Shown: piece by piece, positions 1-57,495 of the stretch
Position numbering within the stretch: position 1 is the stretch's first letter
How the letters are laid out: each line of letters opens with the position of its first letter
Assembly (NCBI GenBank): GCA_030265395.1
Contig: JARFYF010000052.1
Location: 75,784,240 to 75,848,239, forward strand
From: Rhina ancylostomus
Lineage: Eukaryota
DNA: 64,000 nucleotides
Direction of reading: 5' to 3'
Program-made: the position numbers and the translations under genes
Notes under the pieces: generated by a model
What the model was told of the DNA's origin: nothing
The model's input: the letters and a program-made list of their open reading frames with translations, nothing else
The model's database searches: none

Positions 1-539
1 GGACATCAAGGGGGGCCTCAACATTGGGACTCAGCCCCGGGTGCTCCATAGTGTCTGACTTGTGATCCAGAAGAGCCCTGGTGTCAGATCCTGGCATCAG
101 GCATCCCTGCAGGTCAGGCCTCCTGTCAGTTTGGCCCTCAGGACTCAGTCTATATGCCAATATAGGAATCAGTGTAACATGGAGTTGCTACATGTCCTCA
201 GAGAGAATGGGATTGTTCAAAGAAGCAATATTAAGTCTAATTTCACTTCACTCCTCCTTTTTACCCCTCCCCTTGTCTTTTAGCTGCTATGGGAAGTGCT
301 TCCTTGAAGTTGGGTGGTTTGCTATGACCTTAAGGGGCTGTATCTCTAATTATATTGTGTTGTATGGTATACGCAATACCTGCAGTTCAGCTACAGATTT
401 ATTTGCCATGAATAAAGGTTATGTTTACTTGGTGCTCCCAGCCATTATAAACGTCAAATCTAAAATACTAGAAGGATTCACAATGTGCCACATCCCTGGA
501 TATATGTCATGTTATTGACTACCTTTAGAACTCCTTTTC

Positions 540-782
540 AGCCAGCATCATTCCTGATCTCCACCCAATCATAGACCTTCCCTTTTTGTTTTCTTCCACC
601 AACAACCCCTTTTATTACATCTTAAAACTCGCTTCATTTTTGACATTTCCCAGTTCTGATGAAAGGTCACGAACCTGAAGTATTAACTCTGCTTCTCTCA
701 TCATAGGTGCTGCTGCAGCTGAAGGCTTCCTGAAGTATCTGTTTTCACTTCATATTCCCAGCGGCTGCACTATTTTGTTTTA
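540..782 (+). mobile_element. Degenerate Penelope-like element 3' tail (pLTR)
   Basis: Pyrimidine-rich tract followed by cagttCTGATGAaaggtcacgaacctGAAG and the tail shared with the GIY-YIG-bearing copy at 34359-35032. Confidence 0.55.
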
Positions 783-2720: not shown

Positions 2721-4329
2721 AATNNNNNNNNNNNNNNNNNNNNNNNNNNNNNNNNNNNNNNNNNNNNNNNNNNNNNNNNNNNNNNNNNNNNNNNNNNNNN
2801 NNNNNNNNNNNNNNNNNNNNNNNNNNNNNNNNNNNNNNNNNNNNNNNNNNNNNNNNNNNNNNNNNNNNNNNNNNNTGCACAATTTAGAAAGACATAGAAA
2901 TCCAATGGAAGCAGTTCCTTACTATCCCACATTAACTTCCCACACTCAGACTTGTGAACTCTATGCTGTTTTTAAATAGTTATGACTTTGCCTCTCTTTT
3001 GACCAGATGTACGAATGAATGTGCGATGAACTTAAAGAACCAGTACTTAGTTATAGGAGGCAGATTTTCCAGCATTTGCAAAGATTCGCTTTACAATTCA
3101 CAAGTGTTACCAGGTCAGCAAGGCACAATTTCATAAATGCCTTTACCGCAAAAGGAAAGAGTGGAGAAATATTGCTGAAATTGCTATGTACACTGTTGTA
3201 ATGAATGCATACAAAATGAAAGTGTTTAGGATATTGGAATTCTTTATTCAATTAGTATACAGACATCAATTTTTAATTGAAAAGATAAAATATTTCAATA
3301 AGGATTGAGTTATTTGAAGTAATCATTTATCTCTTCTAGTTGTTGATTTACAATATAAATGGTGGAACCTCCCCTTTAACAGCACAATAATCTGCAGCCA
3401 GATCCTGACAGAGAATATTTATGCAAGGGGCATTTGAAATTATAAAAAACAGCAATGTAACTGAGCAATGCAATGGTTATTTATGGCCACAGTGATGAGT
3501 GTTAGGTGATACTTGCTGAATTTCTAATTGTTGCAAATGCAGCTTGCTATCTCACAGCACAGATAGAACTGATGAATAAGAGATTGTTGGAGCATTGCTG
3601 TTTATGCTTTGTCAATATTGCCCATTTTTCTAGATAATGCATTGTAAATGCAGAGCAGCAGTACACAAAACAGGTCAGTTGGCAATAACGACTTAGATCA
3701 ATAGCAATCATTGTTACTGTCTACCATTCCCATTACTGATTGACCTATTTTATACAGCCTGCTTCTTTACATGAATCGTTTTAAGTTGTCAACACACTAT
3801 ATCAATATAAAGTCAGTCTCTTTCGGCAGCTTTTAACTAGTCACTGCTGTGAACATTTTGTTGTGGGCATTTGCAAAGATCAGTGTCAAAAGGTCAGTAC
3901 TTGATAAATATATACGGAAGCCACAATTTCCAAGAAGGTTGTATGTCAGTGAAAGAAAACAGAATGGAGAAATACTGCTCTGATTGCTGTGTGCAGTGAC
4001 AGTGTGGAAGCATTCAAAAATAAACTGTTTACTTTTGTTACATAAAAAGACTAGATTTTAATACTTCACATCAAGGAAATTATTATTGGTATCTAAATCC
4101 AATCAGAAACACAAATGAATTTCAGAACCACAATTAAGTATACATGAGTTACTTCCATTTAAACTTTCAGTTGGAGACTGTTGTCTTTTTTTTATAGAAC
4201 ACTGGTTCTATTTAATCCAATTTCCGACTTCCACCCCAAAAAAAGCTTCCATAGGGATATTGCTTCATTATTTTGATGTTCAATGCACATAAACTGTTTC
4301 AGCAGCAATTCCATGCTATATATCACTAT

Positions 4330-4702
4330 GAAAAACATGATGATGCTAGAGGAACTCAGCAGGCCAGGCAGCACCCGTGGAGAAAAGCAGGCGGTCAACG
4401 TTTCAGGTCAGGACCCTTCTTCAGGACTGAAGATAGGAAAAGGGAAGCTCAATATATAGGAGGGAAAAGCAGAGCAGTGACAGGTGAACAAAAGAGGGGA
4501 GGAGGGGTGAGCACAGGGTGGTGACAGGTAGATGCAGGTAAGATATAGTGATAGGCAGGTGTGCGGGAGGAGCTTCTGACCTGAAACATTGACTGCCTGC
4601 TTTTCTCCACAGATGCTGCCTGGCCTGCTGAATTCCTCCAGGATCATCATGTTTTTCCATGTTTTTCATCCAGATTCCAGCATCTGCAGTCCTTCGTTTC
4701 TC
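4330..4702. mobile_element. Penelope-like tail pair in inverted (fold-back) arrangement
   Basis: 4330-4411 is the near reverse complement of 4576-4657. Both are copies of the PLE terminal sequence. Confidence 0.8.
4392..4429 (-). ncRNA. Putative minimal type I hammerhead ribozyme, core intact
   Basis: Minus strand reads cagtc-CTGAAGA-a-gggtcctgacct-GAAAC-GTT-gaccg: stem I, CUGANGA box, stem II hairpin, GAAA box, NUH triplet, stem I partner. Confidence 0.6.
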
Positions 4703-5859
4703 CAATATGCCACTGAGTATCCGTCTTGCAGGGAAATAGTTTACACCCATTTCAAATCAGAAATTTTGACAAATCATAAAAACCAGGATCAACAACATAC
4801 AAAAGAAAGATACTAAGAATATTGAAAATGTAACATTTATTGAATATTAAGAAATGTTAACTAAAGAAGATCAATATATTACTTGCATAAGTGTGGATTA
4901 TTCATTTTACCTGGTAATATGGGATGGTAATATAGTAAAGATCTACTTGGATATGAAATTAAAATCCCAACTCTAACCAAATTGCAATCAATCTGAATCT
5001 GACCCAAACCTGAATACTTATAATTCTTCTTCCATACCCAAACTGATAATTGACATATACTTAACATCAAACTTGTTCTCATGGTAAGCCTAAGCAAACC
5101 AACCTGAGCCGGATAGTATTAAACTAGGCCAGCATGACACACCTCTAGCCAACCAAAACTCAAATATGTTATCAGAATATATACCCAACTCAACTTGATC
5201 TAAACTTGACACATATAATCCAATTCTATTCTGTTCAGATCAAACAGTCAAGCTTCAGTCAGTAGTTTGTTTTAATATCTTACAGCAAACGTTGTAATTA
5301 TTATTTTTATGTGAAGTACAGGCATTTTGGTAGAGGGAAGCTTTTCTATCATTTCAACCTGTGCCAGCATTGCCACTCTGCCAGACTGAGCTGCTCTATT
5401 ACCAGTTTCATGCTTTTATCCTTAAGCCTGTCAATGATGATGACCACAGACGTTATTCTTTAATTAATTTTAGATACCTGCCTGATTTCCCCTTCTCTGG
5501 TCCAGTCACAGATTTTGTTTGATGATGTTTATGTAAAGCACTTCCATCTCTTTATTCCATAAATTGCAGAGTGTAGATGAGACTTGTAGGTAAACACAGT
5601 TTGAGTATTGACCTTTGAACTGATGATTTCAGGGAAAACTGGGTAAGTAAAACTCCATTTGTTCTATAAATAAGAACCACAAACATTTTCAAAACAGTGA
5701 GGTTGAGAATCTGACTGCAGATAAATTCACATATTGCTTATCTAATTTTACACCAGAAAAAATTTACACCAGATATAGAGAACAAGATGTCAATGATGAC
5801 CATGCCATTGAATGTAAATTACGTAACAAACAACGATCTAACTTTATCGTGAGGTAAGA

Positions 5860-34358: not shown

Positions 34359-35032
34359 GCCATTTGGTGCTCTTGATATGGCCACCTCTACTGTGGTGAG
34401 ACCAAGCACAGACTAGGTGAGCACTTTGCCAAGCACTTATGCTCAGTCTTCCATGGCCATGTGAAGCTCCCGGTTCTTAGCCATTTTAACTCCCCTCTCC
34501 ATTCCCACACTGACCTGTCCATCCTCGGCCTCTTCCACTGCCAGGGTGAGACCAAACACAAACTAGAGGAACAGCGCCTCATGTTCCTCCTCAACCCAAC
34601 GGCATGAACATTGAGTTCTCCAATTTCAGATAACCGGCTCCGCCTCTGTCCATTTTGTCTCTCCTCATGATTTACCCAGCACGTCCTACACACACCCAAC
34701 CCAGCCCCCAGACCCCCATCGCCCTGTTTATTTCCCCTTCTGCACCTACCGCATCTGCCCACCCACCTCCTGCATTTGATTCCATGCTCCACCTTCCTTT
34801 CCTAGCAGGTTCCATCATCTGCTGCCCTTTGTTGCCTCCACTTATCACCTCCCAGCCTCAGTCGCTATTTTCAATCTTCCCTCCTCCATCCGCCAATCAC
34901 CTCTCCTCACCTGGATCCACCTATCACTTGCCAGCTCTTGCTCCACCCCTTCCCCTCAACTCTTTATATTGGCTGACTCCCCTTTAGCTTTCAGTCCAGA
35001 CAAAGAGTCTCGATCCGAAACATCGACTGTCC
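34359..35032 (+). mobile_element. Penelope-like element 3' part: GIY-YIG endonuclease remnant, 3' UTR and degenerate hammerhead
   Basis: IWCS*YGHLYCGETKHRLGEHFAKHL...SHFNSPLHSHTDLSILGLFHCQGETKHKLEEQRLMF...QPNGMNIEFSNFR* (stop at 34631-34633), then a C/T-rich UTR and cagtccagacaaagagtctcgatccGAAACatcgactg. Confidence 0.85.
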
Positions 35033-50315: not shown

Positions 50316-50705
50316 AGACTGCAGATGCTGGAAATCTGCAGCAATGAACACAGACTGCTGGAGGAACTCAGCAGGTCAGGCAGCATCAATGGAGGGAAAT
50401 GAACAGTCAACATTTTGGGCCGAGACCCTTCATCAGGACTGGAAGGGAAGAAGGCAGATGCCAGAATGAAAGGGTGGGGGGGAGGGCGAGCTGGCAGGTG
50501 ATAGGTGAGAGAGGGAAGGTAGGTAGTGGGGTGGGGTAAAAGAGAATGATGTGAGAAACGAGGTGGTGATAGGTGGAAAAGGCAAAGGGCTGAAGAAATA
50601 GGAATCTGATAGGAGAGGACAGTAGGCCATGGAATAAAGGGAAGGTAGTCAGGTTGTGAGGGTGAGGGAGGGGAAAGAGAAGGGGTCATAGGAATGAGGG
50701 AAAAC
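50316..50705 (-). mobile_element. Penelope-like 3' UTR/pLTR with decayed hammerhead (50404-50441)
   Basis: Minus strand cagtc-CTGATGA-agggtctcggccc-AAAAT-gtt-gactg. Homologous to 55240-55600. Confidence 0.8.
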
Positions 50706-51604: not shown

Positions 51605-51765
51605 AAACAACACACAAAGGAGCTGGAGGAACTCCGTGGGTCAGGCAGCAGCTATGGAGGGAAAGGGACAGCTGACATTTCGGGTCAAGACCCTTCATCA
51701 GGACTGGAAAGAAAGAGGGGTGTTGGCCAGTATAAAAAGGTTAGGGGGAAGGGGTGGAGCAAGAC
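51605..51765 (-). mobile_element. Penelope-like tail fragment
   Basis: Same tail family. Contains the hammerhead-like motif listed next. Confidence 0.8.
51669..51706 (-). ncRNA. Putative minimal hammerhead ribozyme motif
   Basis: Minus strand cagtc-CTGATGA-a-gggtcttgaccc-GAAAT-GTC-agctg. Both core boxes and the GUC triplet are present; stem I is weakened. Confidence 0.5.
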
Positions 51766-54487: not shown

Positions 54488-55602
54488 ATCAATGCTGCCC
54501 TCCACCTGCAACTCCTCCATTTCTCACACATCTGCCCTCACCACATTCACCCACCCCACCCCTGACATAACAGGGACAGGGTTCCCCTTGTCCTCACCTA
54601 CCCCCCCCCCCCCGCACGAGCCTCTGCGTCCANNNNNNNNNNNNNNNNNNNNNNNNNNNNNNNNNNNNNNNNNNNNNNNNNNNNNNNNNNNNNNNNNNNN
54701 NNNNNNNNNNNNNNNNNNNNNNNNNNNNNNNNNNNNNNNNNNNNNNNNNNNNNNNNNNNNNNNNNNNNNNNNNNNNNNNNNNNNNNNNNNNNNNNNNNNN
54801 NNNNNNNNNNNNNNNNNNNNNNNNNNNNNNNNNNNNNNNNNNNNNNNNNNNNNNNNNNNNNNNNNNNNNNNNNNNNNNNNNNNNNNNNNNNNNNNNNNNN
54901 NNNNNNNNNNNNNNNNNNNNNNNNNNNNNNNNNNNNNNNNNNNNNNNNNNNNNNNNNNNNNNNNNNNNNNNNNNNNNNNNNNNNNNNNNNNNNNNNNNNN
55001 NNNNNNNNNNNNNNNNNNNNNNNNNNNNNNNNNNNNNNNNNNNNNNNNNNNNNNNNNNNNNNNNNNNNNNNNNNNNNNNNNNNNNNNNNNNNNNNNNNNN
55101 NNNNNNNNNNNNNNNNNNNNNNNNNNNNNNNNNNNNNNNNNNNNNNNNNNNNNNNNNNNNNNNNNNNNNNNNNNNNNNNNNNNNNNNNNNNNNNNNNNNN
55201 NNNNNNNNNNNNNNNNNNNNNNNNNNNNNNNNNNNNNNTCTCTTTCCCCGTCCCCCACCCTCATGATCGATCTATTCCCTGCCTCCTTCCCTTTATTCCA
55301 TGGTGCACGTCCCTCTCCTACTGGATTCCTCCCTCTTCAGCCCTTCATCTCTTCTACCTATCACCTCTCAGCTTATTACATCCCCTCCCTCCCCTACCCG
55401 CCTACCTTCCCGTCACCTGGACTCGCCTATCACCTGTTTGTGTGTGTGGTCCTCCCCCTCCCCCAACTTTCTTATTCTGGCTTCTGCCCTCTTCCTTTCC
55501 AGTGCTGATGAAGGGTCTTGGCCCAAAACGTCAACTGTTTATTTCCCTCCGTGGATGCTGCCCGACCTGCTGAGTTCCTCCAGCACTTTTTGTGTGTATT
55601 GC
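54488..55602 (+). mobile_element. Penelope-like element 3' part (endonuclease region in gap)
   Basis: SSISHTSALT...HNRDRVPLVLTY linker before the gap. After the gap, a C/T-rich UTR and cagtg-CTGATGA-agggtcttggccc-AAAAC-GTC-aactg (55500-55537). Confidence 0.8.
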
Positions 55603-56280: not shown

Positions 56281-57495
56281 GCCCGCACCTTCTTCACATT
56301 GTCCGGACCACTTCCAATCGCATCCCGCTCTCCCTGCGCCACATTGCACTTGGCTGGTTGCCCCTTCGCTCCGTCCATCCCTGCGCCTGGTTCACCCTAC
56401 ACGGTCCGCTAGGCCATCACCCTTTCGGGTCCGCTTGAGCTCCACCCTACCGTCTTCCTTCCAGGTCCGCTTCAGCCCAGGCCTGCCTACTCCCTTCCAG
56501 GTCCGCTTTGAGCTCCTCCCCGCCGCCCGTTCCCTCTGCGCCCCCTGTGGATCGGCCTCGCCCCCGCTCCCGCTCTGCCTCCTCAGCCTGGTTCATGCTT
56601 CCCCCTTGCCTGGTGCACTGGCTCGTCGCCCTGCACCATGTTGCCTGGTCTACTTCCAATCGCACCCCCCAGCCCCCCCCCCCCCCGGCTCTCCCTGCCT
56701 CACTCTGTGCCACACTGCACTTGGTTTGTTGCCCTTTCACTCTGTCCATCCCTGCTTCTGGTTCACCCTACACCGTCCACTAGGCCATCACCCTTTCAGG
56801 GCCTCTTGAGTTCCACCCTACCGTCTTCCTTCCAGGTCCGCTTGAGGCCAGGCCTGCTTTCTCCCTTTTGGGTCCGCTTTGAAGTCCACCCCGCCGCCTC
56901 TGCACTCCTCCCTGCCGCCCGTTCCCTCTGCAACCTGCGTGGTTCGCCCTCGCTCCCGCTCTGCCTCCTCAGCCTGGCCTGTGCTTCCACCCGCCCACCC
57001 GGTGCACTGGCTCGTCGCCCTGCACCTCTTCACGTTGCCTGGTCTACTTCCAATCAACCCCCCTCCCGCTTTCCCTGCGCCACGTTGCAGGTTACCCCTT
57101 CGGTCCGTCCATCCCTGCGCCTGACTCACCCTACACGGTCCGCTAGGCTATCACCCTTTCGGGTCCGCTTGAGCCCAGGCCTGCCGCCCGTTTCCTCTGC
57201 ACCCCATGTGGTTCGCCCTCGCCCTCGCTCTCGCTCTGCCTCCTCAGCCTGGATTCATGTTTCCTCCCCCACCTGGTGCACTGGCTCGTCGCCCTGCACC
57301 ACGTTGCCTGATGTACTTCCAATCGACCCGCCCCTCTCCCTGCGCGCCACATTGCACTTGGCTGGCAGCCCCTTCGCTCTGTCCATCCCTGCGGCTGGTT
57401 CGCCCTACACGGTCCGCTTGAGCTCCAGCCTCCCGTTTTCCTTCCAGGTCCGCTTGAACCCAGGCCTGCCTTCTCCCTTTTCGGTCCGCTTCGTG
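56281..57495. repeat. GC/CpG-rich, pyrimidine-skewed tandem array of ~3.5 variable-length monomers
   Basis: Anchor acttccaatc recurs at 56310, 56652, 57046 and 57315 (periods 342, 394, 269). Internal sub-repeat ggtccgct. Confidence 0.92.

Follow-up and report, generated by a model that had tools for sequence, protein, structure and literature searches.

A truncated, predictedly inactive Penelope-like element of Rhina ancylostomus with a minimal hammerhead motif in its pseudo-LTR

Results

The locus and its features

The window analysed here is the whole stretch of 64,000 nucleotides of the Rhina ancylostomus assembly GCA_030265395.1 (contig JARFYF010000052.1, positions 75,784,240 to 75,848,239). 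Near its left end, a hammerhead motif belongs to a 5'-truncated Penelope-like element (PLE) at 4328-4702. The features of this element and the related motifs in the window are the following.

4392..4429, minus strand: minimal type I hammerhead motif, with a predicted cut between 4397 and 4396, after GUU
4328..4572, minus strand: sense arm, a 5'-truncated pseudo-LTR of subfamily A with the short 3' end, from genome matches
4576..4702, plus strand: inverted 5' arm, holding the hammerhead from loop II onwards (its 3' half) and the full 3' end
4316..4327, no strand: possible decayed target-site duplication, left, 9/12 identical to 4703-4714
4703..4714, no strand: possible decayed target-site duplication, right, 9/12 identical to 4316-4327
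4452..4459, minus strand: TATA-like box, a predicted promoter element ~30 nt upstream of where the ribozyme begins
4425..4449, minus strand: polypyrimidine run plus TCAGTC, overlapping stem I, a putative initiator or 3' splice acceptor
51669..51706, minus strand: sister copy by sequence, subfamily B, core intact, pair 2.1-1.1 broken
50404..50441, minus strand: sister copy by sequence, subfamily B, G12>A
55500..55537, plus strand: sister copy by sequence, subfamily B, G12>A and broken stem I
34992..35029, plus strand: sister copy by sequence, subfamily B, U4>A and G8>A
651..689, plus strand: sister copy by sequence, older subfamily D, U-A at 2.1-1.1, A15.1>G

The sense arm has its best 40 genome matches at 81-93%, and 82 nt of the inverted arm are 91% complementary to 4330-4411. 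At its 3' end, the inverted arm exceeds the sense arm by a tail of ~33 nt; both ends are found in the family, the long one in 23 and the short one in 16 of 39 copies. The element thus combines the 5' truncation, the inverted 5' copy and the tail on one end that are typical of EN+ PLEs, among which inverted 5'-truncated copies and one-sided tails of 30-40 bp have been described as hallmarks (bioRxiv 10.1101/2021.04.23.441226; PMC3846280). Family DNA contigs have loose ends at 4328 and 4702; of two DNA runs whose contigs were compared with the locus, one covers both flanks at ~97-98%, with no contig bridging the element. Among sister cassettes, one (L015) has a clearer target-site duplication of ~17 bp and another (L012) has none.

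A Pfam scan of 150 of the 243 long and 150 of the 336 short open frames of the window yielded no credible host exon. The sole match above the cut-off, ALKBH8_N at 955-1236, is presumably derived from a repeat. Elsewhere in the window, a frame of 328 codons at 56512-57495 (plus strand), which has no Pfam match and lies amid many overlapping long frames, is probably a low-complexity repeat.

The hammerhead motif

The minus strand, read from 4429 to 4392, is CAGTC CTGAAGA A GGGT CCTG ACCT GAAA CG TT / GACCG. It contains CUGANGA, GAAA and UH in type I order and keeps 13/13 core positions (C3 to A9, G12 to A15.1, U16.1, and H17 as U). Stem I consists of three pairs followed by an A/C mismatch, the majority state of the subfamily (26/39 copies), and then by C-G. 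Stem II has four pairs and a 4-nt loop, its first pair being a G10.1-U11.1 wobble instead of the G-C pair that results from the C at 11.1 in 29/39 subfamily copies. Stem III has no loop and is made up solely of the palindrome AACGTT, in which 15.2-16.2 is C-G. The motif has the dimensions of a minimal hammerhead ribozyme (3 bp or more in helix I, 4 bp or more in helix II, and an unpaired base ahead of the latter) and, altogether, every testable feature of the minimal hammerheads of PLE pseudo-LTRs.

Across the window and a 30-kb flank on either side (124 kb), a strict descriptor, specifying the 13 core bases, a 3-bp stem I, a 4-bp stem II and paired 15.2/16.2, matched at 4392-4429 only. A further 134 stretches of 10 kb (1.18 Mb without N) contained four matches, whereas 60 Markov resamples of the window, which give the level expected by chance, contained 0. 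In the Rfam search, no hammerhead was found in the window at E<=10, and the motif falls below the gathering threshold of Hammerhead_1 (RF00163); the genome search with RF00163 returned 0 matches, as did its control search. The minimum-energy fold of the 38-mer contains stems I and II but is a weak one (-5.1 kcal/mol, z=+0.94), and its centroid is unfolded.

A sequence-only reading of this DNA had described a minimal type I hammerhead with an intact core. The 13/13 core positions and the descriptor match, absent from the resamples, bear this out, and the loop-less palindromic stem III, with C-G within AACGTT, agrees with the dimer-type architecture that was claimed. The descriptor search suggested there returned the motif as the sole match in 124 kb; the suggested Hammerhead_1 search was negative in the window (E<=10) and in the genome, where the control was equally silent. 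The five related motifs named in that reading are indeed homologous to the present one but not intact: the core is mutated in four, and in the fifth the pair adjacent to the core is broken. The latter, at 51669-51706, is the nearest core on the same strand, 47 kb upstream of 4392-4429.

Abundance, subfamilies and covariation

To sample the genome, 134 stretches at round-number positions on large contigs were used (1.18 Mb without N). A profile of the 3' tail gave 286 matches, that is, ~243 tails/Mb, compared to 0 for the reversed profile, which was run on the window, its neighbours and the first 94 of these stretches. At this density, a genome would hold roughly 4-5 x 10^5 tails. Copies that pass the descriptor occur at ~3/Mb, and the four matches extrapolate to a few thousand per genome. 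A same-strand neighbour within 700 nt was present for 62/286 tails. As a separate observation, an inverted partner lies within 700 nt on the 5' side of 121/286 tails, and long double-stranded RNA would therefore be common in transcripts that cross tails.

Clustering of 57 copies produced five groups. The subfamilies differ at N7 (A or U) and H17 (U or C), both of which are free positions of the hammerhead, as well as in loop II and in the stem I pair adjacent to the core. This pair, 2.1-1.1, is U-A in 12/15 subfamily D copies, and 2.1 is C in 38/42 non-D copies with T or C at this position (P=2e-10), under a classing by the tail only in which 61 of 184 copies were parsed and subfamilies B and C separate poorly. 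In a hand-picked alignment of 16 rows, three pairs changed on both sides, and 256/500 shuffles scored as high. The C-G versus U-A covariation represents one evolutionary event with modest alignment support, weak overall; the stem covariation proposed as a check in the sequence-only reading is thereby borne out, as a single compensatory change in stem I.

We also observed an abundant group with C, or a decayed T, at core position 9 (for example, L147, L151, L157 and L219). In one subgroup of these variants, most copies begin at the front edge of the ribozyme.

Association with an RT and GIY-YIG coding element

The C-terminus of a GIY-YIG ORF was found upstream of two sister copies (L020 and L023). 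A search with the C-terminal GIY-YIG peptide gave 27,056 first-look candidates, from which 30 loci were listed. Among the 30 loci listed, 20 have the pseudo-LTR (pLTR) of the window, at 84-93%, directly after the ORF C-terminus and in the same orientation; five have it inverted upstream of the ORF end, and seven show neither arrangement, with gaps or contig ends intervening. A second set of 60 loci yielded the ORF end in 56 cases and the ribozyme in 29, in 22 of which the two are 243-298 nt apart; a GTAA is present at the ORF stop in most of the 56 loci. RT, EN and ribozyme are ordered on one strand in 5 of the 23 loci with both domains. All five belong to subfamily B, such that direct linkage to the RT is seen for this subfamily only, the subfamily A of the window being linked to the EN end. 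The sequence-only reading had assigned the repeat to a Penelope-like element, and both the position of the pLTR after the GIY-YIG ORF (20/30) and the RT-EN-ribozyme order (5/23) support this origin.

The closest named relatives of the RT fragment are ray proteins (Hypanus, Mobula; 69-73%), followed by proteins of sharks and a skate (56-66%). With ray and shark relatives spanning 56-73% and rays closest, the description of the family as a cartilaginous-fish repeat is well founded. By a strict pattern, a CX2-5CxxC linker between RT and EN is present in 4/90 loci and 6/15 database proteins. The Pfam scores for the family's RT and GIY-YIG fragments lie below the cut-off (E 0.03-0.07), and a Pfam GIY-YIG search of the genome returned five loci, all of other PLE families, and missed this one. 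Judging from domain order and linker, the element is likely of the Neptune type.

Several observations concern other sequences with these domains. Ray and skate proteins annotated as isoforms of DIPK1C, CHID1 and NMRK1 contain the RT of the element (61-73%), which reflects either exonisation or errors in gene models. Two short contigs (L033, G000:C27946; L035, G000:C12343) carry a different PLE family with RT and GIY-YIG in a 377-aa open stretch, the 3' end of which runs into degenerate, telomere-like CCCTAA repeats. Two others (L032 and L034) have divergent, AT-rich PLE ORFs unlike those of the ray family and may represent rare families or contamination.

Folding and decay of the inserted copies

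The read-through RNA from the inverted arm is predicted to fold into one hairpin (-176.8 kcal/mol, z=-12.4). The predicted probability of the hammerhead stems is 0.000 in this RNA and 0.002-0.02 in RNA starting at the ribozyme. For the dimer, the palindrome duplexes alone were computed, at -1.7 and -3.5 kcal/mol. In the examined 124 kb, neither the 30 kb downstream nor any of the sequence upstream contains an intact same-strand partner. The copy at 4392-4429 is thus probably folded shut and most likely does not cut: cleavage would be unexpected because the inverted arm pairs over the motif and there is no intact partner nearby. RNA initiated at the ribozyme from the retained TATA-like box would lack the inverted arm and could, in principle, dimerise in trans.

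For the analysis of decay, 41 copies were collected by their upstream part and 39 were kept, two being dropped because they do not continue into the tail. These 39 copies contain 14 core mutations, compared to 15.7-20.2 expected from the flanks (P=0.39 and 0.10), and C11.1>T, with 10 occurrences, is about as frequent as G12>A, with 12. The core is intact in 17 copies, core and stems in six, and two are fully canonical. By these counts, inserted copies decay neutrally, and nothing points to catalysis being selected for or against. An initial set of 20 copies had suggested a protected core, with one mutation versus 11.2 expected (P=2e-4); this signal was lost when 19 more copies were added.

Where the copies begin

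The census of 5' ends comprised 286 tails, of which 195 were anchored and 184 gap-free near the start, with position 0 set at the first base of stem I. Starts fall at 0-11 in 65/184 copies and at -5..14 in 91/184; seven lie at -60 to -11 and 27 beyond -61. Near the cut site (31-35) there are 8/184 starts, and no peak of 5' ends was detected at the cleavage site among the 184 copies; five starts at position 32 belong to old subfamily D copies, at least one of which is a full motif with an internal deletion. In simulations, a single start produced a spike of 41-45%, whereas the observed starts spread over ~14 nt, positions 1-14, which indicates that the true starts cover ~14 nt behind a hard limit near 0. 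Upstream of the front-edge copies, the element's own inverted arm is found in 35/91. Given the large excess of front-edge over cut-site starts, the RNA that served as the template for insertion likely began near the front edge of the ribozyme and held the whole ribozyme, uncut.

The TATA-like box is located at the same place in four long subfamily A copies and fits subfamilies B and C poorly. The polypyrimidine run followed by AG is present in most of 31 long copies, from all four subfamilies. We take the TCAGTC within it to be a match to the initiator consensus. A branch-point-like TAAC occurs in subfamily D and TTAT in B and C. In subfamily D, this region bears a closer resemblance to a branch point followed by a splice acceptor, the arrangement of D. 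virilis Penelope.

In one locus (L286, G000:C51:7841878-7841899), the ORF end is joined directly to stem I, one base off the product expected from GT-AG splicing, and the same joint is present in contigs of both DNA runs. We rejected this locus as a spliced copy because the joint is one base off and is explained by a deletion at a 3-nt microhomology.

Discussion

Taken together, the features of the locus very probably identify the motif at 4392-4429 as a minimal hammerhead in the pLTR of a short, 5'-truncated and predictedly inactive PLE copy, likely of the Neptune type. Hammerheads in PLE pseudo-LTRs are already known, and as a ribozyme finding this one is ordinary. The motif resembles the minimal hammerheads described for PLEs (Cervera and De la Pena 2014, PMC4209133) in the CUGANGA with an extra base before stem II, in the GAAA-C-G-U-H without loop III, the 3-bp helix I and the U-rich 5' flank. 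It further shares with them the GUU or GUC site, the predominance of single copies of truncated elements and the pairs on opposite strands 100-700 bp apart, but differs in that its stem II is just 4 bp. Compared to the 4,000-9,000 copies reported there for coelacanth and Xenopus, the copy number is far higher when damaged copies are counted and similar when intact ones are. The searched supplement text of that report contains no shark, skate or Callorhinchus entry. Hammerheads related to pLTRs have been found in one chondrichthyan (bioRxiv 10.64898/2026.07.22.740005), and a dedicated report on a shark or ray PLE hammerhead is absent from the literature searched, which did not extend to subscription journals, Repbase and Dfam.

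Other PLEs offer further parallels. As in the Poseidon element PAc of Anolis carolinensis (Frangieh et al. 2024, PMC11167929), the hammerhead resides in the pLTR, copies appear to derive from uncut RNA and there are two preferred 3' ends ~33 nt apart; unlike PAc, the present family belongs to another clade, with the CX2-5CxxC linker. With the Neptune and Nematis EN+ PLEs (Craig et al. 2021, bioRxiv 10.1101/2021.04.23.441226), it has in common the RT, zinc-finger linker and C-terminal GIY-YIG, the hammerhead pLTR, the inverted 5'-truncated copy and the tail of 30-40 bp at one end. Similarly to Pen2a/Pen2 of Adineta vaga (Arkhipova et al. 2013, PMC3846280), it shows inverted pLTRs, an optional tail, a short target-site duplication, and a TATA box with an initiator-like word, both known in the pLTR of those elements. 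In contrast to Pen2a/Pen2, the copy number of which is very low, the initiator-like word here overlaps stem I and is the place where 5' ends pile up.

A mechanism modelled on other PLEs could account for these inserts. Tandem transcripts of the ancestral masters would contain two motifs, which would pair through their ACGU palindromes to form stem III and would cut slowly after GUU or GUC, probably assisted by protein. Reverse transcription would start inside the tail region and run toward the 5' end of an RNA that is mostly uncut, and the short ends deposited in this way, many of them head to head, would number in the hundreds of thousands. For the present copy, the inverted arm of a read-through transcript from 4702 would pair over the GAAA, the palindrome and the cut site.

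If the dispersed copies instead cleaved host pre-mRNAs as functional ribozymes, either alone or as dimers with neighbouring copies, the intact core at 4392-4429 (13/13 bases), the ~243 tails/Mb with same-strand neighbours within 700 nt for 62/286, and the several thousand descriptor-passing copies extrapolated from 4 in 1.18 Mb would all be in keeping with such a role. We nevertheless regard it as very improbable, considering that the four passing copies sit unpaired in four separate loci, that 121/286 tails have an inverted partner 5', that the copy at 4392-4429 is sequestered in its predicted fold, that G12 is lost neutrally, and that no host gene was found in the 300 open frames scanned; furthermore, a monomeric minimal hammerhead did not cleave in earlier work, in which dimers cleaved at a low level (PMC4209133). 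The same evidence speaks against the proposal of the sequence-only reading that the repeat seeds introns with functional self-cleaving modules: the copy is predicted to be sequestered and has no partner, G12 is lost as often as C11.1, descriptor-passing copies amount to ~3/Mb versus 243 tails/Mb, and the 300 frames include no credible host exon. A reading of the repeat as a non-LTR retrozyme or a plain SINE tail could draw on the dominance of short non-coding copies (91/184 starting at -5..14), on the type I hammerheads that retrozymes share with pLTRs, and on the derivation of retrozymes from pLTRs (bioRxiv 10.64898/2026.07.22.740005; PMC7229834). Retrozymes, however, are by definition tandem arrays in which every unit has a complete ribozyme, and here there is no tandem ribozyme array but a single descriptor-passing copy in 124 kb; the sole 170-nt pair (L004/L005) straddles an assembly gap, a canonical helix III is absent, and the pLTR is directly continuous with the GIY-YIG ORF. 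We consider this reading exceedingly improbable and, for 4328-4702, where one complete ribozyme stands in place of at least two tandem units, largely refuted. It is more conceivable, albeit still rather unlikely, that the masters keep the motif mainly for a non-catalytic role, as an RNA 5' end, a promoter or a protein-binding structure, with cleavage dispensable. Position 9 is C in 17 and T in 3 of 20 copies of a group that was itself classed by position 9, its labels being circular for the ribozyme positions that they used; when copies are classed by the tail only, C or T occurs in 8/9 versus 11/52. In addition, copies seem to be made from uncut RNA, and the tail is conserved between subfamilies much like the ribozyme. 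In the anole PLE, the hammerhead was protein-assisted and dispensable, catalytic mutants left in vitro insertion unaffected, uncut RNA was the main template and there were two internal RT starts (PMC11167929). Conversely, the differences between subfamilies at N7, H17, loop II and the compensated stem I pair fit a hammerhead fold, and in the position-9 variant the A that follows may be taken as A9, with the C bulged out.

A further question is why so many copies begin where stem I begins. We favour a start of transcription over an intron. Under a specific version of this reading, which we offer tentatively as possible rather than probable, capped RNA would start at the first base of the hammerhead, with TATA at -30 and the initiator within stem I; the ribozyme would be a 5'-terminal switch that frees a capped leader of ~32 nt only when two element RNAs pair, and the ~10^5 inserts would be 'strong-stop' products of uncut RNA. 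The pyrimidine run with CAG might alternatively be the 3' splice acceptor of a pLTR intron with its donor in the GTAA at the ORF stop. The pyrimidine run plus AG of most long copies, the branch-point-like TAAC (D) and TTAT (B/C), the GTAA in most of 56 loci and the intron of D. virilis Penelope, which ends in helix I (PMC4209133), are all compatible with splicing. This explanation appears unlikely given that no exact spliced subfamily A copy was found in the genome, the one match being one base off with a 3-nt microhomology, that starts are spread over 1-14 instead of forming the spike of 41-45% simulated for a single junction, and that 35/91 front-edge copies have their own inverted arm, not an exon, upstream. 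Because PLEs retain introns, the missing spliced copies are, by themselves, compatible with an intron. If transcription does start at the hammerhead, the short inserts would be a genome-wide record of the start of a vertebrate Penelope RNA and of a ribozyme that remained uncut during insertion.

The value of this locus lies in its bearing on the question of what PLE hammerheads do. The ends of the inserts, which point to RNA that started at the front edge of the ribozyme and was uncut, agree with the sole in vitro study, and the natural variants of the family (U-A versus C-G in the first stem I pair, GUU versus GUC, and C9) represent ready constructs for cleavage assays.
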